Part shown: positions 4,131 to 53,520 of the stretch, one piece after another
Layout of the letters: every line of letters starts with the position of its first letter
Position numbering within the stretch: position 1 is the first letter of the stretch
Source: a virus
Taxonomy: Duplodnaviria; Heunggongvirae; Uroviricota; Caudoviricetes
Reading direction: 5' to 3' (one strand)
Virus record (IMG/VR): IMGVR_UViG_3300014886_000120
Length of the DNA: 64,000 nucleotides
Notes under the pieces: model-generated
The model's input: the letters and a program-made list of their open reading frames with translations, nothing else
The model's database searches: none
Told to the model about the DNA's origin: nothing
Made by a program: the position numbers and the translations under genes

Positions 4131-4339
4131 AGTTCCTCAGCTATCCTTTCCTTCAGATATTCTATATATCCTTTCTCAAGCATTTCACCCAGTGCTCTGG
4201 GGATGTTAATGACTATGAGGGGAGGAGAGGAAGGCTTGAGATATAAAAGAAGATCGTAGATACCTTCCACTTTGGAGTCATCAAAGTATACAGTAGCAGT
4301 CATACTCTCTAGAGTGTCAAGCTCAATCCTTATCTTCAT
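4127..4339 (-). CDS. small hypothetical protein translationally coupled to polB
   Basis: ATGA overlap with polB start; 70 aa. Confidence 0.35.
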   Translation of the reverse strand: MKIRIELDTLESMTATVYFDDSKVEGIYDLLLYLKPSSPPLIVINIPRALGEMLEKGYIEYLKERIAEEL

Positions 4340-5226
4340 CGTATCATCCCATGCTTCCTAAGGGTGGAGTATACCCATTCCATGAACACGTCCTTGATTA
4401 CATCTACCATTAGCTGTCCAGGTCTCTCTAGCTTCACAGCTCTAGCTGCATCCTGGTATTCTTCTCTTGTAAGCCTGACATGGTACATCTCACCTTTAAC
4501 CCTTTGTTCAGCTTCCTTTATCTTCTTCTCAATCTTCTCTGTTGTGTATTCATCAAGTGTGCCAGCCTTGGCTTCCTTCTGGATGTCCTCAAGATCTCTA
4601 TCTGTCAGCTTGCCTTTAGCTGCAGCTTCAGCAAGCTTGAGAGCAGCTTCAGGCTTGTTCTGGAATGCTGGACTCTTGAGTGTGGAGATAAGCAGCTTAG
4701 TTCTTCTTTGAGACTGGGTAAGCAGCTCTTCCTCTATAGGACTGTCCTTGACCACCTCAGGCAGCTTCTCGTATCCTGCCCATTCACTTATTGTCCTAGG
4801 AGACACCCCTATGATGTCAGCTAGCTCCTCCCTTCTAAGGTTTCTCATAGACTTGACAAAGAAGTACCTGTCTCTATTTGTCAACGAAAGTGAAAGCTCG
4901 TTTTCCAGGAATGAACGTATCCTGGCTTCAAGCTCACTCATCTTCTTCCTTAGACAAAACACCTTTGGTAGTCCAGCCCTCAGAGCTGCCCTATATCTTC
5001 TTGATCCTTCTATAACCTCCATGTTCTGGTCAAGTATTATAGGCCTGGTGTTTATACCAAGCTCCCTCATCGAAGTAACCAGTCCTTCTAGGTCAAGCTC
5101 TGGCAATGTCTTCCTGGCATTGTATGGTGACACTCCCTTTATCTCTTTAGGGTCTATAAATAGTATCTCCCATTCTTCCTCTTCCCTCTCTACATCCCAT
5201 TTCTTTCCTGGTGGTATCAAGCTCAT
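4336..5226 (-). CDS. ParB N-terminal-domain (ParB/Srx-like) protein with C-terminal HTH
   Basis: IEGSRRYRAALRAGLPKV resembles the ParB GERRxRA arginine box. C-terminal ADIIGVSPRTISEW HTH. Confidence 0.5.
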   Translation of the reverse strand: MSLIPPGKKWDVEREEEEWEILFIDPKEIKGVSPYNARKTLPELDLEGLVTSMRELGINTRPIILDQNMEVIEGSRRYRAALRAGLPKVFCLRKKMSELEARIRSFLENELSLSLTNRDRYFFVKSMRNLRREELADIIGVSPRTISEWAGYEKLPEVVKDSPIEEELLTQSQRRTKLLISTLKSPAFQNKPEAALKLAEAAAKGKLTDRDLEDIQKEAKAGTLDEYTTEKIEKKIKEAEQRVKGEMYHVRLTREEYQDAARAVKLERPGQLMVDVIKDVFMEWVYSTLRKHGMIR

Positions 5227-6714: not shown

Positions 6715-7377
6715 TCAAGTATGAAAGACATTATAGATACGTTCACCTCCCTTACCAAGCTTTCTACCATTAACATTCAGGTTGACCAGCTCTTCTCTTG
6801 ACATGGAGACTATCTCTGAAAGCTTATAGTTGGAGGCTAGACAAGCAGCTGTCTTCCTCCCTATCCTTGGGATACATGACAACACATCAAATGTTATTTC
6901 TTCTATGGTACGTTCCCTCTTGACAGCCTTTACTGGTCTGAGGGCAGCTGGCTTGTTAGATTTCTTGTAGTACTCAAGTAAATCTTTAATGAAATCATTT
7001 TCTGAACCTACATGTATGACTGGAACCTTGAAGGAATAGTAGCTTATGACTTTCTGTGTCCTAAGGAATGAATCCAGATCTACAGGTACAAGTCTCTTAC
7101 CTATCCTCCTTAAGGGAGGCCTTCTTGGATATACCCCAATAAGATATAGAAGGGGCTTGTCACAGCTCTTGGATAGCATGTATAGCTGCTCATAAAGCCT
7201 CTTGTTCTGTACTGAACTTATGAAGTCATCTATGGTCTTACGTTCTATTACAAGGGACTCCCCTATCTGGTAGTCTCCTACTTCAAGCTCCCTAACCTTC
7301 ACTTCTATACCCATAGCCCTGAGCTTAGCCGGTATGTGCTTGGGTTCTCTGCTGTCCACTAGTATTGTCATGTCCAA
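6715..7377 (-). CDS. xpf: XPF/Hef/Mus81-family ERCC4 nuclease with C-terminal (HhH)2
   Basis: ILVDSREP...GDYQIG...VIERKTIDD is the ERCC4 signature. C-terminal IPRIGRKTAACLA...ELVNLNVNGRKLG is a tandem HhH. Short crenarchaeal-type architecture. Confidence 0.7.
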   Translation of the reverse strand: MDMTILVDSREPKHIPAKLRAMGIEVKVRELEVGDYQIGESLVIERKTIDDFISSVQNKRLYEQLYMLSKSCDKPLLYLIGVYPRRPPLRRIGKRLVPVDLDSFLRTQKVISYYSFKVPVIHVGSENDFIKDLLEYYKKSNKPAALRPVKAVKRERTIEEITFDVLSCIPRIGRKTAACLASNYKLSEIVSMSREELVNLNVNGRKLGKGGERIYNVFHT

Positions 7378-16947: not shown

Positions 16948-17577
16948 TTAATAAGATGTCAATGGATGGTGTCCCTTTACTTTGAAGACAAGAAAATACC
17001 CATGAGCTGTCTGGGCGTGCTTTTCATTCTTGAACAGTCCAACCAAGGTACGAATATAGACTAACAAGTCTATGAGTTCAAATCTAGTCAAGGAGTCTAT
17101 TATCAGCTTATGGTTCAAGACTAGCTCTCCCTTGTATCGGGTATCCATGATTTTAACTATAAGGAAACCCTCTCTCTTCAACAGGACAGGAGCTATGTTG
17201 TTGAGATCAAAAGCACATTTTTTCTGTAGCTCAATGCTCCATTTAGTCTTTATGGGTGTCCAGTCCTGATCACTACGTTGGTACAGGATGTAGCTGGGTT
17301 TATCATACTTGTATGGAGGATCATAAATTATGGCATCAAAGCTATGCCATGGAAATACACTAGGTAGCTCGGTGATGGGAACATGGAACTGTGCTGGAGA
17401 CTCAGGGTCTATGTCATTGGTTACCACTTCATACCTAAACCTGGCTGCCTTACCAACAGTTTGCCATAGCTTGCCGTGACCGTAGGTTACATCAAGTATC
17501 CTGGCTCCCTCTGGCAGATAGAACTCTAGTATATGTCTGAAGGTGTCAAATTGCTCTCCAAACAAGACAGTTAGCAT
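16948..17577 (-). CDS. small SAM-dependent methyltransferase (DPPY)
   Basis: LDVTYGHGKLW (motif I-like) then IIYDPPYKYDKP (motif IV); 209 aa. Confidence 0.6.
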   Translation of the reverse strand: MLTVLFGEQFDTFRHILEFYLPEGARILDVTYGHGKLWQTVGKAARFRYEVVTNDIDPESPAQFHVPITELPSVFPWHSFDAIIYDPPYKYDKPSYILYQRSDQDWTPIKTKWSIELQKKCAFDLNNIAPVLLKREGFLIVKIMDTRYKGELVLNHKLIIDSLTRFELIDLLVYIRTLVGLFKNEKHAQTAHGYFLVFKVKGHHPLTSY

Positions 17578-18729: not shown

Positions 18730-19377
18730 TTATGTTTCCCTAAACAGCCATCTGAGCACAAAGCTGGAACCCTTCTTCCTCCCTGTAAGTAGAAACTCTA
18801 TGGCTGACTCAGCTAGAACAGATGAAGCAAACAACACTAGAGTGGTTGAAAGTGGATAGCTGCATGGATCTACATTTATTGTTTCTGGGTCTGGGGGAGG
18901 AAGATAATTACTAGCCCATTTTACCTCTCCATACTCAGCCTTCCCGTTTATACCTCCAAACAAACATGGTACATTCAGCTTGCATGCATATTCCTTCATT
19001 AGCCTTCTGGACTCATAGTTGTCAAACGTACATATGGTAAGATCTCCAGAAGACAGTACCTCTTCAACATTGCTTTCATTCACTTCTACAAAGTATGTCC
19101 TAGCTCTGGCTTTGTTTATCTGGTAAAGGATGCCAGACAGAGCTCTTACCTTGGACTGGTTAAGGTTCTCTAAAGTAAAGGCTTGGGTAGATGTGTTGTG
19201 CATCTCTACACGATCTTTGTCATACAAAACAAAGCTTGACACTCCACTTCTAGCCAGGATTACTGAAGTCCAGCTACCAAGTGCCCCACAACCAGCTATA
19301 GTAACTGTCTTGTCCCTGAGCTTACTGAACTGTCTTCCCCTATGGAGCTCCTCATGAAGGAACATTCTAGAGACCAT
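18730..19377 (-). CDS. ThiF/MoeB/E1-like adenylyltransferase
   Basis: RQ motif (HRGRQFSKL), Rossmann IAGCGALGS, LYDKDRVEMHN and FDN motifs of E1-like enzymes. 215 aa, with no CxxC zinc motifs. Confidence 0.65.
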   Translation of the reverse strand: MVSRMFLHEELHRGRQFSKLRDKTVTIAGCGALGSWTSVILARSGVSSFVLYDKDRVEMHNTSTQAFTLENLNQSKVRALSGILYQINKARARTYFVEVNESNVEEVLSSGDLTICTFDNYESRRLMKEYACKLNVPCLFGGINGKAEYGEVKWASNYLPPPDPETINVDPCSYPLSTTLVLFASSVLAESAIEFLLTGRKKGSSFVLRWLFRET

Positions 19378-31513: not shown

Positions 31514-32473
31514 TTATCCTTCCTCTCCATCTCCTTCTTCTCCAGGTAGAGCATAGATTATAGGTGTTCCATGACCGTCTGTAGACAATATTAGCACCTT
31601 AATGTTTGGTGATATCTCCTTCAGAGCTTCAAGGTACAGATACAGCTTGGTAATCTCTTCAGTACTGTTCAAGCCAGCTGCTTTAGCTATCATCTCAATA
31701 GACTCTCTGGTGGCATTGGCAACTATCAACCTAACCTGGGCTTCAGCTTGGGCTATCCTTATCTTCTGTTGAGCTTCTGCATCAGCCAATATAACTATAC
31801 GTTCCCGTTCATACTCAGCTTGTATCTTCTTCTGTTCAGCTACCATCTTGTCCTCAATAGCTTGCATGTACTTGTCTGGTAGAGCAATGTTCCTTAGGTC
31901 AAACTCTAGATGGATTAGAGCTCCCTGGAGTGACACAGTATTCCTAAGGGCATCAAACACAGCTTCCTGGATAGCCAATGCCACAAGCTCTCTCTGGGTT
32001 ATCATCTGGATGGCTGTAAAGTTCTTGGTAACAAACCGTATGGTCTCTCTCACTGTAGAAGCTATAGCTCTGTCCTCCCAGTCAAGGTTTGGATATGACA
32101 AGTATAGAGACCTGAGCTTACTTGGATCCAAGCTCCATCTAACCATAACATCGATAGTAGCTTCAAGCTGGTCTGAAGTAAAGCATTTGATAGCTGGATA
32201 TTCTGCATAGGGGTCACTTCCATCACCCCACATGCCTATGCTTTCAGTAGCATAATAAATGAAGACCACGTACTGCCATGGCATCTTGACAAACCAACAT
32301 GGACCAAGCACAGGTTCCGATACTCCTCCAGTCATTGGGTCTATTACCAATGCTCCATATCCGGTATCTACTGATACAAACATGGTAGCAAAGAACACTC
32401 CAAGAGCTATCCCCCCTATTATCAGGGATACCAACAGAAGTGCTTTCATAGCTTTCAAGTACAGTTTCCTCAT
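31514..32473 (-). CDS. SPFH/band-7 (prohibitin/HflC-like) membrane protein
   Basis: N-terminal TM helix, SPFH core, and a coiled-coil EQKKIQAEYERERIVILADAEAQQKIRIAQAEAQ. Confidence 0.65.
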   Translation of the reverse strand: MRKLYLKAMKALLLVSLIIGGIALGVFFATMFVSVDTGYGALVIDPMTGGVSEPVLGPCWFVKMPWQYVVFIYYATESIGMWGDGSDPYAEYPAIKCFTSDQLEATIDVMVRWSLDPSKLRSLYLSYPNLDWEDRAIASTVRETIRFVTKNFTAIQMITQRELVALAIQEAVFDALRNTVSLQGALIHLEFDLRNIALPDKYMQAIEDKMVAEQKKIQAEYERERIVILADAEAQQKIRIAQAEAQVRLIVANATRESIEMIAKAAGLNSTEEITKLYLYLEALKEISPNIKVLILSTDGHGTPIIYALPGEEGDGEEG

Positions 32474-32815: not shown

Positions 32816-33619
32816 CTATTCCTTCTTAAACACCAAGATATACTCATGAGCCTTACTGGTATATTTCATCCTGTCACACTTGGATATCTGGGTCCATACA
32901 AAGGGGCTTCTTAATACTGAAATAACTATGTCCCATGGAGTGAAGCTGTTCTTTGCAGCAAGCTCTATCGTGTCCTTATGGAGAATCCTAAAGCCTTCCT
33001 TCCTAAAGTCAGCTACTACAAATATACAGAACTTACCAGGCTTAAGGACTCTGTAACAGTTGGATAATGCTTCATCTATCCTAACCAGATATTCGTCATA
33101 AGTCTTACAGTCTGAGAGCTGACCTTCTACACTTTCATATTTTTCAAGGTTCCAGTACGGAGGACAAGTAAATACTAAATCAACAGAGCTATTAGCTGAA
33201 TGTTCAAGCTTACATCCATCTGCATTGTACAATATGTAGTCTCCCGTAGATGAAGTTAATAGAGTACTTCTACTCTTGACCTTATCTAGGAAGGAACTAG
33301 CAATACTGAACATTCTTGGTGAGATGTCATATCCAATATAGGTTCTCTCAAGCTCTATAGCTACAGCTCCTCTAATACCCCATCCCATGAATGGATCAAG
33401 GATAATATCTCTTTTCTTACTCCAGTATTTAATCACAAAGGATGATAGTCCATAAGAGAACTTTGAATACTTTAGCCCTGGAAGGTATTTACTACTTGAG
33501 CTTCTCTTACACATGTCTATGGTCAAATAGCTATCTATCTCTCTCCATCTTTTAGGTACATTCTCAAAAGTCATTACAGACTTAGGTAGGAAGCCGTACT
33601 TCTCTTTTACAGTTGGCAA
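32816..33619 (-). CDS. SAM-dependent DNA methyltransferase (CPPY)
   Basis: Motif I DPFMGWGIRG and motif IV FTCPPYWN; 267 aa. Confidence 0.6.
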   Translation of the reverse strand: MPTVKEKYGFLPKSVMTFENVPKRWREIDSYLTIDMCKRSSSSKYLPGLKYSKFSYGLSSFVIKYWSKKRDIILDPFMGWGIRGAVAIELERTYIGYDISPRMFSIASSFLDKVKSRSTLLTSSTGDYILYNADGCKLEHSANSSVDLVFTCPPYWNLEKYESVEGQLSDCKTYDEYLVRIDEALSNCYRVLKPGKFCIFVVADFRKEGFRILHKDTIELAAKNSFTPWDIVISVLRSPFVWTQISKCDRMKYTSKAHEYILVFKKE

Positions 33620-34704: not shown

Positions 34705-35478
34705 TCAGGCAGCTCTTAGCTCAACCTTCTTGTTGCTTATTAGCTTAGCTCCACACTGTGGACACATGACAATGTACTCTCTTGGAGAAGATCTGGCTTT
34801 CTTCCTTGGCTTGACTATACCTTGCAGCTTCATGTCCTGTTTCTTGATAGCTCTCAGTACTTTCTCTTCTGGAGCTCCATCAAGAACGTTCTGAAGAGCC
34901 TGGTAAGCTCGGTATACCGTAAGAGTTCCCCGATCAAGCTCAGCTACTATGTTTGGAATCTTGTCTTCATTCTCATATATTGTCTTCAGCTGGTATAGCT
35001 TGCCAGACGATATTCCCAGCTCATGGGCAACCTTGTCTCTAAGCTTTGGGAATTCGGTCAAAGTTTGTCCTAATTTCCCTTTCTTGGGTTTCCCCACCTT
35101 GTAAAAGGGCTGGAACTTCTTCTCTAAGACCTTTGCTTCCATGAACAGTTCTCTGGGTGTCTTCTGTCTGTATTTGTTAAGCATTACTATGGCAAGCTCT
35201 TCGTCTTCGTAGTATCTGATGATTACTGGTACCTTCCTTATCCCAAACCTCAATGCCCTGTTGTAACGTCTCCTACCATCCAATATCTGGAGCTCTTTGT
35301 TTACAACAAGGGGAGTACGGATGCCATTGTCAGCTATGTCCTTATCTAGCATTTCATCGATATGATCTGTATAGATTTTCTTGTTGAACGGATGTACTTC
35401 CAGCCTGTCCGTATCCACCAGATATATAGTGTCCATAGGCTTGAGCTCTCTTAGGCCAATACCTTTACCTAGACTCAA
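34705..35478 (-). CDS. ParB N-terminal-domain (ParB/Srx-like) protein with C-terminal zinc ribbon
   Basis: ILDGRRRYNRALRFGIRKVPV matches the ParB arginine box; C-terminal CPQCG. Confidence 0.5.
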   Translation of the reverse strand: MSLGKGIGLRELKPMDTIYLVDTDRLEVHPFNKKIYTDHIDEMLDKDIADNGIRTPLVVNKELQILDGRRRYNRALRFGIRKVPVIIRYYEDEELAIVMLNKYRQKTPRELFMEAKVLEKKFQPFYKVGKPKKGKLGQTLTEFPKLRDKVAHELGISSGKLYQLKTIYENEDKIPNIVAELDRGTLTVYRAYQALQNVLDGAPEEKVLRAIKKQDMKLQGIVKPRKKARSSPREYIVMCPQCGAKLISNKKVELRAA

Positions 35479-39018: not shown

Positions 39019-39263
39019 AAGAGCTCGTTATGCTCTAGATACTTTTTCTCCCACTTCCCTCTCCTGATGCATATGTACACCTCTCTAGACACAAACTTTC
39101 TAATTGCAGCTAAGATTTGTTCTCGATATGTACGTTTAGAAAGGCCTATAACTATATTGCCCTCAGCATCCAACGTTATATACTCAAGCCTGGCAAACAC
39201 AGTTATCTCGTCCATTCTAGTCCAACCTCCTATAATGAATAGTCCTTCATGGACACTACACAT
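39015..39263 (-). CDS. hypothetical protein
   Basis: 82 aa; 4-nt overlap with the downstream gene. Confidence 0.3.
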   Translation of the reverse strand: MCSVHEGLFIIGGWTRMDEITVFARLEYITLDAEGNIVIGLSKRTYREQILAAIRKFVSREVYICIRRGKWEKKYLEHNELF

Positions 39264-40516
39264 GGAAAGTATGTAGGTATCCTACTAGGATCTCCCTTCT
39301 TGGATACTACCCATATTACGGTAAGATTTGAAGGTACCTCTCCAGGTAAAGGAAAGACACCATAAGCATCTGTAAAGTACACTAGAACTTTGGCTCTAGG
39401 CCTATTCTCCCTTATCCATCGAAATATAGGTCTAAAGTCAGTTCCTCCTCCACCTTTAAGTCTGGCAACTCTCAAATCATATTCTGAAGCTACCTTGTTA
39501 GCATCGTACAATCTAGAGTCACAGCTGAAGAGGAGTATCTCTACACTCTTGAAAGACCTTAATATTCCAAGAAGCTCACCGATCCCGTCTTTCACTTCTT
39601 CAGATGACATTGAGCCAGAAGTATCCACACAAGCTATGAGTTCAACCTTCTCTTTCTCAAGAGATGGAAAGTAGATATCAGTCACTATAGACTTCCTACT
39701 TGGTCTTCTATAAGAAAAATTGAAGGGAATACTTCTGGTCACTAAACGGGCCAGTAGCTCTCTCCATGAAAGCTTGGGCTCTACTAAATCATCTATCAGC
39801 CTCTCCATTCCAAGTGGTAGCTTGCCTATTATCTTAGCTCGTTCAAAAGCATCCTTGACTATTCTTCTCCAGTTCGGGACATGCTTCTCTGGCTCCAAGT
39901 CAGCTAGCTCCTCTGGTAGTCCGAGTTCTCTGAGTTTCTGTTTGTCTAGCTTACCATTTGGGCCTCTAGCCTGCTCAAGCTTGTCTCCAAAGATATGCCT
40001 ATCCAAGCTACCTTGTCTACAGATTACCCCGTCCTTAGACACACGTGGGATGGTACCTCTGAACGGACACTTACTACAGTCCAGTGTACACATTCTGGCA
40101 GAACGAAGTGGATCATCAGGTAGCTTGTCATATATCTCTTCCCATGCCATGCCCTTCCATCTCTCGTCTATTAGAGCTCCTCTAGGAAGAACAAACTCTC
40201 TTCTGATAATCAAGTTGAGAGCTAAGTCCATGGCAATGTTAGCCTTATATGGGTCTCGTTTACCCAGTCTCTCTAGATGCCTAAGCATGACATGTCCAAC
40301 TTCATGGGCTAGTACCCCTTTGAGCTCTTCTATGCTCAGCCTCTCTACAAACTCTTCTGAATAATAGACAGTTCCAAGATGGTTCACTCCCATAGTAGGG
40401 AGAAACGTACACTTGACAAAATTAAGGTGGAGAACAAGAGTACCCCAGAAAGGCTGTCTAGACAATAGCTGTATCCTAGCTTTTGATATCTTCTCTTCTG
40501 GAGACAACTTAGGCAT
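39230..40516 (-). CDS. HExxH zinc-metallopeptidase-like plus vWA domain protein (MoxR partner type)
   Basis: N-terminal GVLAHEVGHVMLRH (HExxH). Central Cys cluster CTLDCSKCP...C. C-terminal vWA MIDAS ACVDTSGSM. Confidence 0.6.
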   Translation of the reverse strand: MPKLSPEEKISKARIQLLSRQPFWGTLVLHLNFVKCTFLPTMGVNHLGTVYYSEEFVERLSIEELKGVLAHEVGHVMLRHLERLGKRDPYKANIAMDLALNLIIRREFVLPRGALIDERWKGMAWEEIYDKLPDDPLRSARMCTLDCSKCPFRGTIPRVSKDGVICRQGSLDRHIFGDKLEQARGPNGKLDKQKLRELGLPEELADLEPEKHVPNWRRIVKDAFERAKIIGKLPLGMERLIDDLVEPKLSWRELLARLVTRSIPFNFSYRRPSRKSIVTDIYFPSLEKEKVELIACVDTSGSMSSEEVKDGIGELLGILRSFKSVEILLFSCDSRLYDANKVASEYDLRVARLKGGGGTDFRPIFRWIRENRPRAKVLVYFTDAYGVFPLPGEVPSNLTVIWVVSKKGDPSRIPTYFPCVVSMKDYSL

Positions 40517-40533
40517 CTACACTACCTCCTAAG

Positions 40534-41748
40534 TCATTCACCTACAATGTCAAAGTATGGAGACAGCCTTGCAACAAATGGAGAGTACTCCTTTATCTCA
40601 AGTATGTTCCTCTTGAAGAAAGCTTCGTCAGTTGACTTAACCAGCTTGAGTAGGAAGACAGCAAACTCAGCTGTTAGTCTATTTGCAAATACGACTATGC
40701 TTCTCAGAGTCTCTCTCGTCTTGTGATGAATGAAGTAATCCACCAGGTTAGTACACAAAGTATAAAGCAAGTCCAGATTCTCTGGTATAGGCATAGTGTC
40801 TGGGTTCCTAATGAACTCCTCTACTGGAGGTAACTTTCTCCTGGCCTCTAGAAATGCCCTGAACATCTCAGCTACGTAAGTTCCCACCCTACCAGAGACA
40901 TACAGCATCACTTCCTCTTCATCGTACACTCCCTTAATGAGGTTGCTAGCTCTTTCCCATGATCTTGGAGTAGCAAAAGCTTTCTCTCTGTGTCCAGGCT
41001 TGTGGGTATACAGTGCTGAATTGTTAGTGTTGATGAAGCCTATTATCCTATGGTCTATGCCATGTTGTAGAGCCCATTCTGTCCAATCCTCTACAGAGGG
41101 AACTCCAAGCTCATACCAGCTGAACCTGTCATTGAGTGGATCTCCAAAGTCAAATGTAGGAGCTCCATCCAGAGGCCCTCTATTACCAGCTCCTATAACA
41201 ATGTACCCATCAGGTAGTGTGTAGTCTCCAAAACACCTGTCATTGATGAGCTCATAACATACTGCTTGGACAAGAGGTGGAGCCAGGTTGAACTCATCTA
41301 GGAATATAATTCCATGACCAGCATATGGCATCCAGCCAGGCTTGTTCCATTTAGTGATATAGTCTACTATCTTGACATCCTTGTAGTCATCTCTATCCAC
41401 GAACTGAGGTAATATCCTTACCGGTATCAGCTCAAATCTTCCCTTTACCTTTACCAGAGCATAATTATCCGGTAATCCCATTACTTCACCAGCATCTTTC
41501 TGGGCTATACGTTGGTCTACAAAGCAGAACTTGTCTACATGCTGGTTAGGCATCTTGGTCTCTATGAACTCAAGGCTGAGCTCTTGAGCCAGCTCCATAG
41601 CTGCATCCCTAGCTGTATAGCTCTTCCCTACACCTATAGGTCCCTCAATAAATATTGGTTCTTTAGTATAGTAAGCTCTCTTTATTATCTTCTTGAGCTG
41701 TTTATGGTTCACCTGGATGATATTGCCACTTCTTATGCGTTTACTCAT
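40534..41748 (-). CDS. MoxR-like AAA+ ATPase
   Basis: Walker A GPIGVGKS and Walker B IIFLDEFNLAP (MoxR has DEINRA); 404 aa. Sits immediately upstream of the vWA-peptidase gene. Confidence 0.6.
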   Translation of the reverse strand: MSKRIRSGNIIQVNHKQLKKIIKRAYYTKEPIFIEGPIGVGKSYTARDAAMELAQELSLEFIETKMPNQHVDKFCFVDQRIAQKDAGEVMGLPDNYALVKVKGRFELIPVRILPQFVDRDDYKDVKIVDYITKWNKPGWMPYAGHGIIFLDEFNLAPPLVQAVCYELINDRCFGDYTLPDGYIVIGAGNRGPLDGAPTFDFGDPLNDRFSWYELGVPSVEDWTEWALQHGIDHRIIGFINTNNSALYTHKPGHREKAFATPRSWERASNLIKGVYDEEEVMLYVSGRVGTYVAEMFRAFLEARRKLPPVEEFIRNPDTMPIPENLDLLYTLCTNLVDYFIHHKTRETLRSIVVFANRLTAEFAVFLLKLVKSTDEAFFKRNILEIKEYSPFVARLSPYFDIVGE

Positions 41749-46097: not shown

Positions 46098-47093
46098 CTA
46101 TGCATATTTCCTTAGTACCTCTTCTCCCTTAGGTGTTACTCGTAATAGTCCATGCTTTGTGATGTATGTCTGGATATGCTCCCTTACAAAGCCACATAAC
46201 CTACAGTCAGCTACCCTAACCATGTAGGTTACAGCTCCTCTCTTCACTCCCAAGTCTTCTGTCTGGTCTCCATAGTAGGTTCTACCTTTGTCAACCAAGA
46301 CAGTAGCATCCAAGTTATGTATCAAAGCTATCCCACCGGCTACATCATATTTGTCAAAGCTCTCAGCTATCCTCTGATTTACATAAAGACCGGTAATACC
46401 TCTGGTCTGATTGAACCTAGCTAACTCCATAACCCTGTACTTCAAGGCTCCCCTATAAGACTCAAGTATTGTTACTGAATCTATAATGATTAGCTTGATG
46501 TCATTCCTCTCAGAGGTATACCTTAGAACTTCAGCAAATGTGTTCCATTCCCTAAGCTCTGGCTTAGCCACAGTATCCATAACATAAAGGTTCTCCCTTA
46601 TCTTACTCCATTCCAGTCCGAGGAACATAGATTTGTCCATCATTCTACTCTGCAAGTCATACCTTCCAGTGCTAGATATGAAGATATCCTCTGAAGTCAC
46701 ATAGAGTACTTTTGTGCCCCTGTGAGCTGCCCTAATGGCTACCTCTTCCATGAGTATTGATTTCCCAGCTCCGGGGGTTCCGGTTATAGACAGCTGAATA
46801 CCTAGTGGTATACCGTTTATGCACTTGTCAGAATTATCCAGAAACAGCCTATCCAGTAGGGTCTCAGTCCTATACACTTCAAGCTTCTTCTTCTGTGTCA
46901 TGTCAGTGGGTATTGTTATCAGCTCTTCATAGTCCTCCCTTCTGGACAGATCCATATCTTCCTGGAATGGTTCACTTGTGATAGTCCATTCATCTTCTAC
47001 ATCTGACTCTGAACTAGCTTTTTCAGCCATCTGCTCTTGCATTTTCTTTAGAGTCTCTAGCATTTGCTTCATTAACTCTTCAGACAAGCTCAT
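46098..47093 (-). CDS. KaiC/RecA-superfamily ATPase
   Basis: Walker A ITGTPGAGKS and Walker B LIIIDSV; 331 aa. Confidence 0.6.
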   Translation of the reverse strand: MSLSEELMKQMLETLKKMQEQMAEKASSESDVEDEWTITSEPFQEDMDLSRREDYEELITIPTDMTQKKKLEVYRTETLLDRLFLDNSDKCINGIPLGIQLSITGTPGAGKSILMEEVAIRAAHRGTKVLYVTSEDIFISSTGRYDLQSRMMDKSMFLGLEWSKIRENLYVMDTVAKPELREWNTFAEVLRYTSERNDIKLIIIDSVTILESYRGALKYRVMELARFNQTRGITGLYVNQRIAESFDKYDVAGGIALIHNLDATVLVDKGRTYYGDQTEDLGVKRGAVTYMVRVADCRLCGFVREHIQTYITKHGLLRVTPKGEEVLRKYA

Positions 47094-47941: not shown

Positions 47942-48286
47942 TTACAGTCTCCTAGCTATATCCCTCAGATAGTTGTTTTTAAACTCCTCCCATTCCTCTC
48001 TAATGTAACCGATAAGGAGCATGCCAGGATAAACCAGCAAGCTCATTGTGGTGTACCTGAACAACATTGGCAACCATATAACACTAGTATCCTCTATAAT
48101 TTTGTGTTCCATATCCGGTATTATCCACACCATAGCCCCAAATATTCCGAAAGCTAGATGACATCCAAAAAGTACAGCTGGCAATATCACCCTGATGATC
48201 ATAGCTATCTCCAGGAGCTTTCCCTTTACTATCTCTTTCCATTTACCAATCAGGAACTTGACAAATAAAAGGAGTACTCTCGTCAT
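47942..48286 (-). CDS. membrane protein
   Basis: Three TM helices. Confidence 0.35.
   Translation of the reverse strand: MTRVLLLFVKFLIGKWKEIVKGKLLEIAMIIRVILPAVLFGCHLAFGIFGAMVWIIPDMEHKIIEDTSVIWLPMLFRYTTMSLLVYPGMLLIGYIREEWEEFKNNYLRDIARRL
47957..47972. promoter_or_regulatory. motif 1 degenerate copy
   Basis: TATATCCCTCAGATAG, about 32 nt upstream of the 47925 start. Confidence 0.3.
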
Positions 48287-48795
48287 GTCTCTCCCTCCTT
48301 TCTTCTTAAAATCTTAGCCATCATATAGCTTCTTTCTAAGATTGCAGACTTAGAGAAGCCATGTCTCTGGAAGAATCTTATACCAGCTTCATTGTTCTTT
48401 CTTACGTATGCACATGCCAGAAACAAATCCCTCTTCACTCCAAAAGCTTCATCTCTAATAACACTGAGAGCATGGTTCAATAAGATGCTAGCTATTCCAA
48501 GTCTCCTGTACTTGTCATGTACTACAAGAGACCCTATTTTCCTGACTTTTACATCTACCCCTATAACACCAAGTATGTCTTCACTTGGCAATGTAACAAA
48601 CAAATAATATCTGACTATGCCCTTTAACACCTTGAAGGATGAGACCCGGTTTAAGTGTCCTTCACCAAACTCTCTTATCATAGACTCAACTATCTTAGCT
48701 GCTTCTTCTTCAGAATACCTCGTAAGCTCCTTCAGTCTAGCTATTTTATAGGATTTAGAATGGATAAGCTTCCTAGCTTCCTCTCTATCAAGCAT
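48283..48795 (-). CDS. GNAT-family N-acetyltransferase
   Basis: VVHDKYRRLGIASILL matches the acetyl-CoA-binding motif A (R/Q-x-x-G-x-G/A). Confidence 0.65.
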   Translation of the reverse strand: MLDREEARKLIHSKSYKIARLKELTRYSEEEAAKIVESMIREFGEGHLNRVSSFKVLKGIVRYYLFVTLPSEDILGVIGVDVKVRKIGSLVVHDKYRRLGIASILLNHALSVIRDEAFGVKRDLFLACAYVRKNNEAGIRFFQRHGFSKSAILERSYMMAKILRRKEGET

Positions 48796-48834: not shown

Positions 48835-49119
48835 CTAGAAAACACTAACAAGATCTCCCATAGTAACAAAGCCTAGCAGATTTCTATTCCTAAGCTTCTG
48901 ACGGAGCTTATCAGCACAGCTACGGCAGAGCATCTTAGTACATCTCCATGGTATGTACCCTGGTAACGAATGTTTATAGACTGACACAGTATAGATACGT
49001 CTACCTTCATGTTTATTAGACTTGCACATGTCAGATACAAAAGACACCAGTCTAACAATCTCGTCTAAAGAGGAACTCTCATCCTCATATACAGCACAAT
49101 CATCCAGAGAAAAGCTCAT
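48835..49119 (-). CDS. small Cys-rich protein, member of a local paralog family
   Basis: C-terminal LCRSCADKLRQKLRNRN. Confidence 0.4.
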   Translation of the reverse strand: MSFSLDDCAVYEDESSSLDEIVRLVSFVSDMCKSNKHEGRRIYTVSVYKHSLPGYIPWRCTKMLCRSCADKLRQKLRNRNLLGFVTMGDLVSVF

Positions 49120-49125
49120 AACGCA

Positions 49126-49404
49126 TCACCTTATCATAAGGATACCATGTAAAGAAGCTTGGTATCCCCTATTGGCTAGCCTCTTTAGAAGCTCGTCTGC
49201 ACACTTATGGCATAGAACAGTGGCATATTTCAAATAGTAGCTACCCCCTATATGATATATTCTCCTTAGTGGAAGGACATAAACCACATATGCCTCCCTA
49301 ACGGTGTGACAACTTGAGTTGCACCTATGACTTATCATGTTTATTAGCATTCTCACAGCATCGTGTTCCGGGATACCACATTTATCCTGATATATTAGGC
49401 TCAT
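49126..49404 (-). CDS. small Cys-rich protein, paralog family
   Basis: LCHKCADELLKRLANRG. Confidence 0.4.
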   Translation of the reverse strand: MSLIYQDKCGIPEHDAVRMLINMISHRCNSSCHTVREAYVVYVLPLRRIYHIGGSYYLKYATVLCHKCADELLKRLANRGYQASLHGILMIR

Positions 49405-49417
49405 TTCTTGAGTCCAC

Positions 49418-49978
49418 CTATCTAAAGTATTTTCTGATATGCTCCATTATTATCCTGTCTATCTCACTCTCTCTCCATTCAGAGTTGCAGCACCAACATC
49501 TGGTAACCCCAAACTTGTCCTCATAGAAAAACCTACAGTGACACACGTGACAGTGTCTCGGCACAGTAAGTACTGAAAGTCTTATTATCCCACATTCTGG
49601 GCACACCAGTCTACCCTGTAAATCTCTCTTGCATACTGGACAAATAAACCTGTATTCTCCATTACCTAGACTTGCATCTTTCTCATTAGCTTCATAACAG
49701 TCTTCACATAGGGTAGAGTTTTCCATACGAGGATTCTTTTTACACCATATACACAGCTCTTCTACAGACTCTATGGTAACAACCCTATGAACTATTCCAC
49801 CTCTATTTCTAACCCTTGGTTCTAGCTCATTGAAGCAGTTGAGACATAGCTTGGTCTGTACTGTCCTAAGTCGTCCCCTATTTGAGTCATACGGGAACCT
49901 AAAGGTGACTATCACTTGTTTAGTATGACTTGAACATTTAGCTTCTGCACTTTCAATTAGCTCTTGTATTTCAGACAT
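49418..49978 (-). CDS. multi-zinc-ribbon protein, paralog family
   Basis: CLNCFNELEPRVRNRG plus four further CxxC pairs. Confidence 0.4.
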   Translation of the reverse strand: MSEIQELIESAEAKCSSHTKQVIVTFRFPYDSNRGRLRTVQTKLCLNCFNELEPRVRNRGGIVHRVVTIESVEELCIWCKKNPRMENSTLCEDCYEANEKDASLGNGEYRFICPVCKRDLQGRLVCPECGIIRLSVLTVPRHCHVCHCRFFYEDKFGVTRCWCCNSEWRESEIDRIIMEHIRKYFR

Positions 49979-50074
49979 CCTTACTCATCCCATTTACAAG
50001 AGTAGTAACAAATATCACTATCTCTATAAGCATTACACATTTCAGACTGTTCTTCTATTCCCTTATTTCCGGAC

Positions 50075-50302
50075 TTATGGCTCCCTATTCTTCAGCTTTG
50101 AAGCTATCTTACAAAAACAGCTGTTACACAATATAGCTCCAAATGGCATAGACCCCACTAGAAAAATGAATAGCCTCTTGTCTGAATGTTCACACTTCCT
50201 CTCAGCTTCCTTTACAATACCCAATACTTCTTCTCTCATCTCTAGTACTCCTCTGTATGACATAGACGTATCTCCATAAGATTCAGTAATAACCTTCAAC
50301 AA
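50075..50302 (-). CDS. small Cys-rich protein, paralog family
   Basis: CNSCFCKIASKLKNR. Confidence 0.35.
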   Translation of the reverse strand: MLKVITESYGDTSMSYRGVLEMREEVLGIVKEAERKCEHSDKRLFIFLVGSMPFGAILCNSCFCKIASKLKNREP

Positions 50303-50513
50303 ATCTAGGGAGTATAGCTTTTCTGTTCCTTAATTTAGGAACTATCTTAATGAAGCACTCCTTACATACTATTATGCCATAGGGGATAGCTCTAACCACA
50401 AAGACAATGAGATCCTTGTCTGTATGGTTACAGTTCTTTTCAGCCTTCTTAATGATTTCTATTATATCTTTTCTGATGTCTTCCTCTCTATTTCTCAGCT
50501 CTAACAGAAACAT
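50283..50513 (-). CDS. small Cys-rich protein, paralog family
   Basis: CKECFIKIVPKLRNR. Confidence 0.35.
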   Translation of the reverse strand: MFLLELRNREEDIRKDIIEIIKKAEKNCNHTDKDLIVFVVRAIPYGIIVCKECFIKIVPKLRNRKAILPRFVEGYY

Positions 50514-50721: not shown

Positions 50722-51105
50722 TCATCTCTGACCATATTTCCTAACTCCCTGGTATCTCCCACTACATTCCAGAATCTCTTTAACGTTTATCCCAGATAGC
50801 AGCTTGTCAAGATTCTCCTTTGGAATGTTCATTCTAGAGCTAAAGACTTCAGCTACTTTATCTTGGTTCCTGTAATATTCATTGTCATGATACTTCGTCT
50901 TGGATAACTTGTGAGCTATTTCATGCACTACAGTAGCCACCACTTGTTCCTCAGACTTGCATATATTCGAGTTGACGAATATATGAAGAGAGTTGTTAAC
51001 CAAAGCTATACATCCTATCTCATCCTCAAGAGCAGATGATAGGTGTATCTCCACTGGTTCATTGAGTATCTCCTCTGAGATACGTTTTATCCTTCTAAAC
51101 CTCAT
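50722..51105 (-). CDS. HExxH-motif protein, putative zinc-dependent peptidase
   Basis: VATVVHEIAHKLSKTKYH; 127 aa; directly downstream of the GATase gene. Confidence 0.35.
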   Translation of the reverse strand: MRFRRIKRISEEILNEPVEIHLSSALEDEIGCIALVNNSLHIFVNSNICKSEEQVVATVVHEIAHKLSKTKYHDNEYYRNQDKVAEVFSSRMNIPKENLDKLLSGINVKEILECSGRYQGVRKYGQR

Positions 51106-51123
51106 CCTTACACCACCTCTACT

Positions 51124-51882
51124 TTAATACAAGTACACAGTTGAACCTTTAGTCTTGGTCTTAAACCCACTCCTATAACCATAGTCATACCTATAATCGT
51201 AATAGTAGAAGCCATAGTCACCAATCTCCCTTATGCCTCTGGATGTTATCTGATAGAGACAGTTGGTCTCTGGTTTAAAGGTCAACACATTAGAGAACTT
51301 GCCCAGTCTCTTACCAAATATTCTGCATCCATCCTTAAGAGCTGACTCTGTACTAGCAAACACTAGAGCCTTATGTGGAATATACCCTACTGGAGATGGA
51401 TTGTGGTTAGACCATAGGAATATAGACCTTGGATTATCCCTCTTACATAGTGCTATAGCAGCTGTCCCCCTTATTTCATCCAAAGCTTTAGTCAACCCGT
51501 ATCTCTCTATGTAGGAGAGGATAATCTCTGAGTCTACTTGACCTATATACTCATACTTGGATAGTCTCTGGCTATATATGATACCATTATGCACCAGAAT
51601 CCAACGCTTCGAGTACAAGGGATGGTTGTTATGTGGGTTCTTAGGAGTACCTTGGGTAGCTTGCCTAGTGTGTAGCAACGTTATATAACCAAATCGTTTA
51701 GGGAAGATACTGAGCTTGACGAATATAGAGGCTCTCACTGGAGCTTTAACTATGGTGCCGTTAGTGTATATCCCAGTTGCATCTTTCCCTCGATACTCTA
51801 TCTCTAGCAACAGTTGTCTGGCAAGTCTTCTAGCTTCTCTCTGGGTTAATCCCAGGTTAAGGAAACCAGCTATCCCACACAT
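51124..51882 (-). CDS. class-II (Ntn) glutamine amidotransferase domain protein
   Basis: N-terminal MCGIAG nucleophile-cysteine motif typical of AsnB/PurF/GlmS-type GATase II; 252 aa stand-alone. Confidence 0.65.
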   Translation of the reverse strand: MCGIAGFLNLGLTQREARRLARQLLLEIEYRGKDATGIYTNGTIVKAPVRASIFVKLSIFPKRFGYITLLHTRQATQGTPKNPHNNHPLYSKRWILVHNGIIYSQRLSKYEYIGQVDSEIILSYIERYGLTKALDEIRGTAAIALCKRDNPRSIFLWSNHNPSPVGYIPHKALVFASTESALKDGCRIFGKRLGKFSNVLTFKPETNCLYQITSRGIREIGDYGFYYYDYRYDYGYRSGFKTKTKGSTVYLY

Positions 51883-51903
51883 ATCAAGATTACCTCCTCT
51901 TCT

Positions 51904-53520
51904 CTAGGTAAAACCCTCTATTTTCCTAGGTAACACTCCTGGCTTTCTCCTAACCTTCTTAAACATCTTGTCCTTATCTACGATCTTGATGCCATGTCTA
52001 TCTAGCTCTTCTATTATAGCTGCCTTTAGAGATAGAAGTATCCTATCAAACTCTTCACGACTAATAAGACCCTTCCTAAAGCTGTATGGTAAGCCAAAGC
52101 AATTACTTGGTCTAGAAATATCAGTAGCTTGAGAGTACCCGTCTAGCCTAAAGCCATACAGCTGCTTCCCTCTCTCTCTCCTTAGCCCAAACAGTACTAT
52201 ATCGTAAGGATGATTAAGGTACATTTCTAGCTCTTTAAGAACTATCCTGGTTATTTCTAAAGACCACTCATCTGAGAATCCAATAGACAGCTTGTAACCT
52301 TCACTAGTCGGGATACCCCAGTTACCCAAAATGTTATAATAGTGATTTCGTAGCTTGCCAGTAGCAAATGCTCTAAACAGCTTGTACTCTCTTCTTGACA
52401 ACCCACATATACGTTTGTAGTCTTCGTACTTCAATCTCCTATTGTACACTATCCGTCTATGGTTGACATAGTAATTAGCTACACCTCTGGCTATCTTCAA
52501 GACTATCCTAGCTATCTCTGGGAAGCATAGCCATGCAGATGGAGGTGTACGATACTCGAATCCCCATGGCTTAGGTTCAATAGCTGATAATCTGTTGTAT
52601 CCATGTCTAGCATGACCAGACTCACTCCTTAAAGGCTTACCTATAAAGTCATCCAACATCTTTATTAGGTTACCACTTGGGAATATACCAAAATGTATGT
52701 GTCCACCAAGAGGATCATGGTCTCCTTTGACTCCAATAATATGATATACCCTGCTAGCCTTCATCAACAAATTGTGAATGTTACGTACTAGCTGTACATG
52801 ACTCACTGAAGGTTCTGGTCTTATCTCTAGCTGGCTACCAGCTCCATCACACCCAACATCTTCATGATACCCAGGAGTGTAATCCTCAGCTCTAACTATC
52901 CTCCCACCAATGAACACTTCAAATTCTGGATCACATCCTATGGTAACCTTGACAGCCCTCTTTCTCTTCTTGACCTTAGATAATGGAACCAGACCAAAAT
53001 GCTCTAGTGAAGATAGCATAGAGCTCAAAATGTCATGCTGAGTAGCTGTATAGTCATGAGTAAAGTCAGACAAAACCAGTACCTTTAGCTTTGGACAATA
53101 CCCACCACAGACAAGTTCGTTCAATTTAAGCTTTACACAGGCTCTAGATATGAACTCTATCTGAGAAGATATTAGATCGTCCCAGCATGAACCAAGCTCG
53201 TTAGACGGAGCTGTGAAGGGGATTAACACTTCTTGCTTCATATTACAAGAGACACAGTCAAGCTGACGTAGCTCTCTTGAACATCCAGAGAATATTAAAC
53301 ATTTAGACTCGTCTGATGACGGTACTTTAGGGTCATGGTATATTATCTCTGAATGTGCTGCTACACAGCTGAAATACTTTGATAGGAGGTCAATGTAGTA
53401 GCTGCTATGTTCCATAGTCTTCAGGACGCCAGGTACTACACTTGTCCCACCAGATAGAACTATCTTGTCTGAGTTCTTACTCTCCTCTCTCCTAGGCATT
53501 TTAATCTCCTCTTCTAGCAT
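51904..53520 (-). CDS. large hypothetical protein, candidate carboxylate-amine ligase (GS-like amidoligase) or PP-loop synthetase partner of the GATase
   Basis: GCDPEFEVFIGG resembles the ExE metal-binding strand of the glutamine-synthetase fold (GPEPEFF). N-terminal VLSGGTSVV is a degenerate PP-loop-like SGG motif. 22-nt gap to the GATase gene. Confidence 0.35.
   Translation of the reverse strand: MLEEEIKMPRREESKNSDKIVLSGGTSVVPGVLKTMEHSSYYIDLLSKYFSCVAAHSEIIYHDPKVPSSDESKCLIFSGCSRELRQLDCVSCNMKQEVLIPFTAPSNELGSCWDDLISSQIEFISRACVKLKLNELVCGGYCPKLKVLVLSDFTHDYTATQHDILSSMLSSLEHFGLVPLSKVKKRKRAVKVTIGCDPEFEVFIGGRIVRAEDYTPGYHEDVGCDGAGSQLEIRPEPSVSHVQLVRNIHNLLMKASRVYHIIGVKGDHDPLGGHIHFGIFPSGNLIKMLDDFIGKPLRSESGHARHGYNRLSAIEPKPWGFEYRTPPSAWLCFPEIARIVLKIARGVANYYVNHRRIVYNRRLKYEDYKRICGLSRREYKLFRAFATGKLRNHYYNILGNWGIPTSEGYKLSIGFSDEWSLEITRIVLKELEMYLNHPYDIVLFGLRRERGKQLYGFRLDGYSQATDISRPSNCFGLPYSFRKGLISREEFDRILLSLKAAIIEELDRHGIKIVDKDKMFKKVRRKPGVLPRKIEGFT

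Follow-up and report, generated by a model that had tools for sequence, protein, structure and literature searches.

A three-gene cassette in a tailed virus encodes a PF14395-family carboxylate-amine ligase, a stand-alone class-II glutaminase and a putative minimal zincin

Few phage enzyme modules that lack an experimentally assigned function are as widespread as the gene pairs for a glutamine synthetase (GS)-like amidoligase and a glutamine amidotransferase. A phage system of this kind, typified by phiEco32 and LUZ24 and consisting of a COOH-NH2 ligase type 2 (PF14395) and a class-II glutamine amidotransferase (GATase), in some cases with an Amidoligase_2 and an ATP-grasp protein, was predicted computationally (Iyer, Abhiman, Burroughs & Aravind 2009, as reported in PMC10580990 and PMC11706807), and phage UFV-P2 provides an example of its annotation (PMC3890496). 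Our literature searches returned no experimental study or published assay for any PF14395 protein. The trio of genes described here is a variant of this already predicted and widespread phage system. It was found in a stretch of viral DNA of 64,000 nt, referred to below as the window.

Layout of the three-gene locus

The three genes lie back to back on the minus strand at positions 50722-53520, as the first-pass annotation of this DNA had described, and encode products of 538, 252 and 127 aa, here designated LIG (51904-53520), GAT (51124-51882) and HEX (50722-51105). All coordinates given for features of the trio refer to the minus strand. The gaps between the genes are short (21 nt between LIG and GAT, 18 nt between GAT and HEX), and a Shine-Dalgarno motif could be read directly from the sequence in each, namely AGGAGGT (51892-51898) 5' of the GAT start and the Shine-Dalgarno-like GAGGTGGTG (51111-51119) 5' of the HEX start. 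Promoter-like and terminator-like sites occurred only at chance frequency, and the three genes therefore read as a single operon. Homologues were identified for all three products, and the order of the genes was seen again in dozens of unrelated contigs, far above chance expectation.

The window derives from a large tailed virus of archaeal type that carries archaeal-type replication genes, and the trio sits within a replication-type region. Just downstream, at 48835-50513, are five tandem CxxC…KLRNR paralogues, which were unique to the window virus and absent from a sister locus (L085).

Families of the three products

LIG is a long-form member of the PF14395 carboxylate-amine ligases with a GS/glutamate-cysteine ligase (GCL) fold. 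It matched the Pfam model (COOH-NH2_lig, phiEco32-like carboxylate-amine ligase type 2) with 78.2 bits against a cutoff of 25 (E = 7.7e-22), the match spanning model positions 1-185 of 254, and its best match in BFVD was also to the PF14395 ligase family; models for GS/GCS2 and for PP-loop proteins gave no match. The first-pass annotation had suggested a GS-fold amidoligase on the basis of a DPEFEVF strand, and had held open an ATP-grasp, GS or PP-loop fold for the large protein. The strand was located at residues 197-203, within a catalytic core (aa 191-400; 52321-52950) predicted with pLDDT >90, and comparison of the predicted structures identified the GS/GCL fold, upholding the suggestion. 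Dop and PafA were among the best structural neighbours, with GCL, GS and the bifunctional GshAB being related at the level of fold. The core displays the motifs G195xDPE199(FE201), G223xDG...Q230xE232xR234P, G272GH274xH276, R305 and G320xE322Y323R324. Residues D197, E199, E232, R234, H274, H276, R305, E322 and R324 were invariant across all 57 aligned homologues, whilst E201 (49/57) and Q230 (56/57) were conserved less strictly. These positions probably match the residues that bind metal and phosphate in ligases of the GS/GCL fold and, together with the fold, they suggest that LIG would catalyse ATP-dependent formation of an amide bond.

The core of LIG is flanked by two extensions. The N-terminal one (aa 1-190; 52951-53520) is an alpha/beta domain that holds a non-conserved SGG tripeptide at residues 23-25. 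The C-terminal one (aa 401-538 and the stop codon; 51904-52320) gave no Pfam match, and W401, W419, G445, R450, G451, G476 and R482 within it are conserved across the long-form family. Comparison by hhalign revealed no relation of the C-terminal extension to ATP-grasp or Firmicute proteins.

GAT begins MCGIAG, from which a stand-alone class-II GATase had been called at first pass, and by its Pfam match, invariant residues and fold it is an intact Ntn glutaminase for which activity is expected. The class-II domain (aa 1-225; 51208-51882) scored above the Pfam threshold and was predicted to adopt the four-layer Ntn fold. The nucleophile, Cys2 (Cys1 once Met is removed), directly follows the initiator Met and was invariant in 55/55 sequences of one alignment (A4), and was present in 42/44 glutaminases of a second, cassette-specific alignment, which was numbered on locus L016 and did not include the window GAT. 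The glutamine-binding and oxyanion residues Arg73, Asn99-Gly100 and Asp117 (window numbering) were likewise invariant in A4, as were their equivalents across the cassette family. The remainder of the protein is a Tyr-rich C-terminal tail (aa 226-252; 51124-51207) that ends in YYYDYRYDYGYRSGFKTKTKGSTVYLY before the stop codon and is predicted to be disordered, with pLDDT <50 for aa 232-252. Across the GAT family, Tyr accounted for 9.9 % of the first 40 tail residues versus 3.1 % of the domain body, and an alternating aromatic tail motif was present in 10/58 GATs as against 5/436 background ORFs (Fisher p = 4.5e-7). A near-identical RYDYGYYR segment was present at locus L088, where the partner of the GAT is an Amidoligase_2.

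The HEIAH motif reported for the third product was located at residues 61-65 of HEX (motif DNA 50911-50925). In the family alignment the HExxH residues (H61, E62 and H65) were invariant, and a His about seven residues downstream (H73) was present in 14/17 sequences. HEX matched the Pfam SprT-like family (PF10263) with E = 8.5e-5 and 22.8 bits, under the cutoff of 25.6, and Peptidase_M78 with E = 7e-4. The best matches of the family profile in the PDB were the minigluzincins proabylysin (4jiu; E = 0.006) and projannalysin (4qhf; E = 0.03), both marginal, and a word-index homologue search with HEX returned only HEX itself. By its motif and these matches, all below curated thresholds, HEX is a predicted minimal HExxH…H zincin of SprT-like or minigluzincin-like type. 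A PADLOC defence scan gave a weak match of HEX to CapP (E = 2.8e-4), another weak one to RmrA, and none for the ligase, and an assignment to defence or anti-defence was rejected.

Recurrence and gene context of the cassette

A profile-based scan of viral contigs gathered 41 distinct loci, and the PF14395-type ligase profile alone picked up 6157 clusters at 50 % identity; clusters of the long form number at least 579. GAT was adjacent to LIG, on its 3' side, in 36/41 viral loci, with a gap of no more than 5 nt or an overlap in 22 of these 36 pairs, and in 8/8 close genomic loci. Sampling from the GAT side gave the same picture, as 4/4 GAT relatives lay directly 3' of a GS-like amidoligase (three PF14395, one PF12224). 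A zincin followed GAT in 20/41 viral and 6/8 genomic loci, counts that also take in a second HExxH family. The co-occurrence analysis proposed in the first-pass annotation thus found the three genes co-conserved in other viral genomes. No fusion of LIG and GAT was seen among the loci, and their adjacency and small or overlapping gaps suggest that the two products may form a complex. RimK-like ATP-grasp genes were present in 17/41 viral loci. In the window, no ORF matched the cassette ATP-grasp HMM at E ≤ 0.01, and no match to PF12224 (Amidoligase_2) was found among the 39 ORFs scanned; both families accompany the amidoligase system in many phages and are not defining for it.

The sister contig L085 had the trio (56-69 % identity) and nothing else in common with the window, suggestive of movement of the cassette as a unit. 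We propose on these sequence comparisons that the trio is a self-contained and horizontally mobile cassette, conserved in many uncultured viruses. In the window, a long-form ligase and a HEX of the type usually paired with the MCIIA clade of GATs occur together with a GAT from the canonical MCGIAG clade, and such interchangeability of GAT clades fits a generic role as ammonia donor.

Genes neighbouring the cassette were usually involved in DNA metabolism, and included PD-(D/E)XK nucleases, methylases, SNF2 and ParB_N. Among 150 pooled neighbours, the only matches to hypermodification-type genes were two to PTPS (QueD) and two to radical-SAM proteins. Clustering of the neighbours found no co-conserved precursor, substrate or tag peptide outside closely related contigs, and no small ORF family of the kind expected for a Pup-like tag with C-terminal Gly-Gly-Gln/Glu was co-conserved with the cassette across the loci.

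Candidate reactions and relation to known systems

Our preferred reading, to which we assign a probability of roughly 0.45, is that LIG and GAT act as the two subunits of an amide-forming enzyme that draws on both ATP and glutamine, with HEX as an accessory peptidase, and that the trio belongs with the phage pairs of a GS-like amidoligase and a class-II GATase. The N-terminal Cys of the Ntn subunit would hydrolyse glutamine to release ammonia, as its intact catalytic residues suggest. LIG would phosphorylate a substrate carboxylate with ATP to give an acyl-phosphate, with ADP and Pi as in GS, GCL and PafA, and the amide would then arise by capture of the ammonia or, perhaps, of an amine, a course to which the fold and invariant motifs of LIG point. 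The carboxylate would most likely be a Glu-type or C-terminal one on a peptide or protein, given that a minimal zincin is co-conserved, that sister cassettes have a RimK-like ATP-grasp, that cellular homologues occur in a spore-coat/YheC-D setting, and that Dop and PafA are among the top structural neighbours. The role of HEX would be either to process the substrate or to undo the modification. Several observations count against this reading: about half of the cassettes lack a zincin and the window lacks an ATP-grasp, no substrate or tag gene is co-conserved among the neighbours, the two additional ligase domains are not accounted for, and GS-fold enzymes are able to use free ammonia.

A more far-reaching version, which we judge quite unlikely, would make the cassette a self-contained and pupylation-like viral system of protein modification, whereby the glutaminase-fed ligase amidates or cross-links a specific carboxylate, either of a viral or host protein or of the conserved disordered Tyr-rich tail of GAT itself, and the zincin matures or erases the mark. 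If true, viruses of both bacteria and archaea would be using a post-translational modification that had so far gone unrecognised. More generally, a modified protein or DNA as the product would represent a new tool in the virus-host arms race, whereas a mere metabolite pathway would be an ordinary finding.

GCL, PafA and gamma-glutamyl-polyamine synthetases couple glutamate to an amine through its gamma-carboxylate, and it is possible, if doubtful, that the trio runs a gamma-glutamylation cycle in which LIG links this carboxylate to a Lys side chain, a polyamine or a metabolite. The Ntn protein would then be no ammonia donor and would instead act on the adduct as a gamma-glutamyl amidohydrolase, removing or editing it (EgtC-like, or Dop-like in function), with the zincin trimming the peptide. 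The profile of the window GAT clade, however, resembles those of GlmS, PurF and AsnB far more than those of EgtC-type hydrolases, the link to GGACT comes from one case, and the interchangeable pairing of two divergent GAT clades with two ligase families is easier to understand if the job of GAT is generic. Hypermodification of nucleic acids or nucleotides is an unlikely explanation. Here the pair would amidate or aminoacylate a carboxyl-bearing base or nucleotide, for instance by converting a 7-carboxy-7-deazaguanine-type base to an amido form or by a thymidine hypermodification, and so shield viral DNA from restriction. Amidoligase and amidotransferase genes of unknown function do adjoin thymidine-hypermodification genes on viral contigs (Lee et al. 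2021, PMC8989533). In addition, a few loci have QueD (PTPS) and radical-SAM genes next to the cassette, which lies mostly among DNA-metabolism genes and, in the case of the window, in a replication-type region. Yet none of 5-HMUDK, aGPT-Pplase, dUMP hydroxymethylase, TET/JBP, DpdA or QueC/E was found in the 39 window ORFs scanned, and a thymidine/7-deazaguanine link was rejected on this ground; these genes were equally absent from the top families of the 150 pooled neighbours, and the zincin, the RimK-like partners and the spore-coat setting of cellular homologues point to peptides.

That the trio is an auxiliary nitrogen-metabolism set, by which the virus raises the turnover of glutamine/glutamate in its host or produces a glutathione-like peptide or another small gamma-glutamyl metabolite, appears very unlikely. 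The fold kinship with GCL, GS and bifunctional GshAB speaks for it, and several phage-genome papers label such genes as auxiliary metabolic genes (PMC10580990, PMC11706807), but these labels are annotations rather than experiments. GS activity on free Glu combined with a glutaminase would moreover be a futile cycle, the family is far from housekeeping GS and GCL (9-15 % identity), and the co-conserved zincin would be left unexplained. Highly improbable, finally, is a split asparagine-synthetase-like enzyme, the 538-aa protein providing a PP-loop adenylating synthetase that works with the GAT-II domain, one of two readings of the gene order put forward in the first-pass annotation, which had taken the SGG tripeptide for a degenerate PP-loop. 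The tripeptide itself and the GAT-II type of the AsnB glutaminase are in keeping with such an enzyme. This reading was rejected, as the SGG columns are gaps, D or E in homologues, the region has pLDDT <50, no Asn_synthase or PP-loop Pfam match was obtained, and the confidently predicted core has the GS/GCL fold. The other reading offered there, an amidoligase with a GATase as predicted in phages, stands. The reversible modification that it had suggested from the adjacent putative peptidase is speculative, since only about half of the loci have a zincin alongside the pair.

Set beside known enzymes, the window ligase shares 9-15 % identity with YbdK/GCS2, glutamate-cysteine ligases and glutamine synthetase, whose sequence models do not recognise its family, and it differs from them in its flanking domains and in having a dedicated glutaminase partner. 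The likeness to PafA and Dop is one of fold only: the cassette has no co-conserved Pup-like tag gene and no proteasome link, and its deamidation or ammonia chemistry would come from an unrelated Ntn enzyme. Unlike the glutaminase domains of GlmS, PurF and AsnB, the window GAT stands alone, with no fused synthase domain and with a disordered Tyr-rich tail. The HEX family resembles minigluzincins and SprT-like minimal zincins in its length of about 100 aa and in its HExxH motif, after which come, within a few residues, a third His and then F/W, but its matches to them are all under curated or conventional thresholds and it possesses its own conserved N-terminal IKWxRLK helix. Firmicute PF14395 proteins belong to the same ligase family (full-length Pfam match, E ~1e-94); their genes are chromosomal and spore-coat related, located in YheC/D ATP-grasp operons or beside cotE and, in contrast to the viral cassette, these loci have neither a GAT nor a zincin. 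At the N-terminus these proteins are similar to the C-terminal half of an ATP-grasp and unrelated to the N-terminal domain of viral LIG.

An ATP-dependent ligase and a separate glutaminase, encoded by two genes as two subunits, are described for MurT/GatD, which amidates the Glu of the peptidoglycan stem peptide (PMC3267633). The reaction proposed for the trio would be analogous to this in function only. MurT is a Mur ligase and GatD a class-I GATase, with folds unrelated to those of LIG and GAT.

The closest counterpart is the phiEco32/LUZ24-type system, with which the window shares a PF14395 ligase and GAT-II gene pair that lies outside the structural region of a tailed-virus genome, and to which sister cassettes add the ATP-grasp. 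The differences lie in the architecture of the parts. Ligases of cultured phages are about 265 aa and barely found by BLAST (tblastn gave no homologues at E ≤ 1e-5 and only remote matches at E 0.05-1), whereas the window ligase has 538 aa and two extra domains. Cultured-phage GATs are 486-614 aa, compared with a bare 225-aa domain and Tyr-rich tail in the window. A minimal zincin is the recurrent third gene here, and the Amidoligase_2 and ATP-grasp of LUZ24 and UFV-P2 were not found in the window. The window thus presents a minimal three-gene form, with one ligase, a bare glutaminase domain and a zincin of about 100 aa, free of the ATP-grasp and Amidoligase_2 that complicate the modules of cultured phages, and this minimal, thermostable-looking set offers a practical start for reconstituting the chemistry in vitro.

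Organization of the trio and its ligase

The first-pass annotation had proposed three back-to-back minus-strand ORFs, and all were found where it had placed them: the ligase LIG (51904-53520, minus strand; 538 aa), the class-II (Ntn) glutaminase GAT (51124-51882, minus strand; 252 aa, N-terminus MCGIAG) and the HExxH zincin HEX (50722-51105, minus strand; 127 aa, HEIAH at residues 61-65). The genes are spaced 21 and 18 nt apart, each gap containing a strong Shine-Dalgarno motif, sigma-70-like promoters and intrinsic terminators are no commoner than chance between 49 and 56 kb, and a 70-aa ORF upstream of LIG overlaps its start. The trio is therefore part of a long co-directional operon.

LIG matched Pfam PF14395 ('phage phiEco32-like COOH.NH2 ligase type 2') at 78.2 bits (E = 7.7e-22, cutoff 25) over model positions 1-185 of 254 only, and its PHROGs assignment concurred. 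With the motifs G195-x-D-P-E199, D225-G226, E232-x-R234-P235, G272-G-H274-x-H276, R305 and G320-x-E322-Y-R324 invariant in 57/57 homologues, LIG looks catalytically competent; E201 was kept in 49 of these homologues and Q230 in 56. An SGG at LIG residues 23-25 had been taken for a PP-loop, a reading essentially refuted by gaps, D or E at this site in homologues, a pLDDT below 50 for the segment and the lack of any PP-loop match. Residues 1-190 and 401-538 are conserved inside the long-form subfamily, in which the PF14395 core carries extra N- and C-terminal regions, and matched no Pfam family. These extra domains displayed no kinship by hhalign to ATP-grasp, GAT or Firmicute PF14395 homologues, and no solved structure was detectable by sequence.

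The ligase family is widespread, and the version in the window is experimentally tractable. An exhaustive profile search returned 6157 clusters (50 % identity) at E ≤ 1e-3 and 579 at E ≤ 1e-30; the best 150 of the 6157 were 291-851 aa long, mostly 470-690 aa, and most matches were near-full-length. In contrast, homologues in cultured phages have a length of about 265 aa, and BLAST barely picks them up (E 0.05-1). Much longer cassette ligases of 750-1036 aa were also observed (L061:6224-9334, L013:5236-7542, L044:2615-4927 and L045:1505-3760), the large added N-terminal regions of which had no Pfam match.

The glutaminase and the zincin

GAT passed the Pfam thresholds for GATase_6 and GATase_7 and aligned in NCBIfam with the glutaminase domains of GlmS and AsnB. 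Its predicted model (pLDDT 90.6) has an Ntn domain that extends to about residue 225. Cys2, Arg73, Asn99-Gly100 and Asp117 were invariant within its clade, and equivalents of the catalytic residues were invariant or nearly so in all cassette GATs. These fall into two clades, the cassette-specific 'MCIIA', which partners most long-form ligases and is absent from Pfam's precomputed hits, and the canonical 'MCG(I/L)', which includes the window GAT. Combining a long-form ligase and a zincin of the type usually paired with MCIIA, but a canonical-clade GAT, the window trio is a mosaic.

The C-terminus of GAT is a low-complexity, Tyr-rich tail (51124-51207, minus strand) that is predicted to be disordered. 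Across cassette GATs, the Tyr content was 9.9 % over the initial 40 residues of the tail vs 3.1 % in the domain body, the tails often showing alternating aromatics (e.g. YDYRYDYGY or YGYEYGYNY); the strict form of this motif was present in 10/58 GATs vs 5/436 background ORFs. Tyr-rich tails, with further examples at L002:9496-10170, L031:7297-8055, L062:8123-9154, L085:1867-2817 and L088:4001-5128, were found in both GAT clades and alongside both ligase families, and could act as a docking peptide or substrate.

HEX carries H61-E-x-x-H65 plus H73. In an alignment of 17 family members HExxH was invariant, the third His was present in 14 and an N-terminal IKWxRLK helix was conserved. Matches to described families were weak: SprT-like at 22.8 bits, under the 25.6 cutoff, Peptidase_M78 (E = 7e-4), CapP (E = 2.8e-4) and, by profile, the archaeal minigluzincins proabylysin (E = 0.006) and projannalysin (E = 0.03). 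We call HEX a putative minimal zincin of the SprT-like or minigluzincin kind, placed in neither family. Five cassettes instead carried, directly after GAT, a second and unrelated-looking HExxH family of 134-206 aa with an FLHEFAHALGY motif and no Pfam match (L011:7868-8338, L021:8476-9096, L026:8205-8684, L027:7741-8205 and L036:5472-5876), in what looks like a non-orthologous displacement of the peptidase.

Conservation and genomic context of the cassette

A profile-guided IMG/VR scan yielded 46 loci, 41 of them distinct, and purpose-built HMMs were derived from the first contexts; eight close loci lay in cellular genomes or MAGs (Victivallales, Desulfovirgula, a deltaproteobacterium, Porphyromonadaceae, Lithacetigena, Brevinematia, Halanaerobiaceae and Pampinifervens). 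GAT directly followed the ligase on the same strand in 36/41 distinct viral and 8/8 genomic loci, 22 of these 36 viral pairs overlapping or being separated by ≤ 5 nt, whilst a zincin came after GAT in 20/41 viral (15 HEX family, five second family) and 6/8 genomic loci. From the GAT side, 4/4 sampled relatives came immediately after a GS-like amidoligase gene (PF14395 in three cases, PF12224 Amidoligase_2 in one). The closest sister contig, L085, kept the trio in identical order, with identities of 69 % (ligase core), 60 % (GAT) and 56 % (zincin), and had nothing else in common with the 64-kb window; the cassette moves as a unit.

A RimK-like ATP-grasp gene was present in 17/41 viral and 3/8 genomic loci, and absent from the window. 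Two tandem ligase paralogues, both retaining all catalytic motifs, occurred in 13/41 viral and 0/8 genomic loci, including tandem long-form ligases upstream of GAT (e.g. L006, L009, L010, L014, L015, L016, L018, L019 and L032). This arrangement recalls the PafA/Dop pair and suggests two ligation steps or a heteromer. No further consistent partner emerged from 150 pooled neighbour genes, which comprised DNA-metabolism genes of a generic kind, QueD and radical-SAM (two each) and one GGACT. In L007, L012, L026 and L048, QueD (6-pyruvoyl-tetrahydropterin synthase) was only a few kb away from the cassette, and two of these loci also had radical-SAM genes, a hint that 7-deazaguanine DNA modification is present in some of these phages; neither gene was consistently tied to the cassette.

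Full-length PF14395 proteins (E about 1e-94) were also identified in the spore-formers Heliobacterium, Paenibacillus, Alicyclobacillus, Cohnella and Symbiobacterium, and their N-terminal regions resemble an ATP-grasp's C-terminal half. These chromosomal loci (L064, L065, L067, L069, L074-L078 and L080-L082) had neither GAT nor zincin, the genes lying either in operons that also contain 2-4 YheC/D-type ATP-grasp genes or in the interval from cotE to mutS. Such surroundings suggest that peptides or proteins are ligated in the spore coat, and the loci look like an uncharacterised spore-coat peptide-ligase system.

The window is a single strand-biased block of minus-strand genes (about 41 % G+C) without tRNAs. 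Its products include a family-B DNA polymerase, an HhH-RadA recombinase nearest those of haloarchaeal tailed viruses (about 29 % identity), an ATP-dependent DNA ligase bearing a DNA-binding domain at its N-terminus, and a large terminase only remotely akin to that of any cultured phage. The source contig, obtained in a metagenome run, measures 110-128 kb. We take it to represent a novel, large tailed virus whose replication module is of archaeal type. Other minus-strand genes encode two ParB_N-domain proteins (4336-5226, 34705-35478), an ERCC4 nuclease (6715-7377), two N6/N4 DNA methylases, one weak (16948-17577, 32816-33619), a 215-aa ThiF/E1-like protein (18730-19377; Pfam ThiF E = 4.8e-26), an SPFH/Band-7 protein (31514-32473), a paired MoxR-like AAA+ ATPase (404 aa, weak Sigma54_activat match) and DUF2201 metallopeptidase/VWA protein (428 aa; 39230-41748), and a KaiC-like ATPase (46098-47093). 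A GNAT acetyltransferase gene (48283-48795, minus strand), downstream of the trio at a distance of about 2 kb, was not co-conserved with it. Directly downstream lie five tandem paralogous ORFs of 75-186 aa (48835-50513, minus strand) with a C-terminal CxxC...KL(R/K)NR motif seen in no other compared locus, L085 included; they probably encode small regulators that bind Zn and have no connection with the cassette.

Proposed chemistry and relation to known systems

The interpretation as an amidoligase with a class-II GATase and an HExxH protein stands, given the PF14395 and GATase_6/7 matches and the recurrent adjacency, and the evidence held nothing contrary to expectations. With folds, intact active-site residues, operon structure and co-conservation established, we tentatively favour (probability about 0.45) an amidotransferase, in which GAT would hydrolyse glutamine and pass ammonia to LIG, which would turn a carboxylate into an acyl-phosphate and then an amide, whilst the zincin may act on the ligase's own peptide or protein substrate. 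Such a substrate is favoured for the family because of the Firmicute spore-coat context. A gamma-glutamyl ligation-and-hydrolysis cycle would account well for the tandem ligases, for the similarity to EgtC and for the Glu-gamma-carboxylate chemistry common to all structural neighbours. However, true amidotransferase domains are the nearest sequence relatives of the GAT clade, whose profile lies far nearer ammonia-donating enzymes (GlmS E = 2e-33, PurF, AsnB) than stand-alone hydrolases, and pairing is interchangeable across both GAT clades and both ligase families; we therefore prefer the amidotransferase and regard the cycle as rather unlikely.

DNA or nucleotide modification, suggested by an observation of Lee et al. 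(PMC8989533), found little support in the neighbourhoods examined and seems improbable, and an AMG role is more improbable still. As cited in PMC10580990 and PMC11706807, Iyer et al. 2009 proposed a role for the phage amidoligase and GATase genes in cell-wall modification or secondary-metabolite synthesis; the literature searched yielded no experimental study of PF14395 or the phage amidoligase/GATase pair. Rather than a system of a new kind, the trio is a distinct architectural variant, not described before, of the phage amidoligase/GATase system that had been predicted computationally. The window, from an archaeal-type virus, has the variant in its most minimal form, which differs from that system in three respects: a long-form ligase with two extra, unassigned domains, a glutaminase reduced to the bare Ntn domain plus a disordered, Tyr-rich tail, and a minimal zincin.
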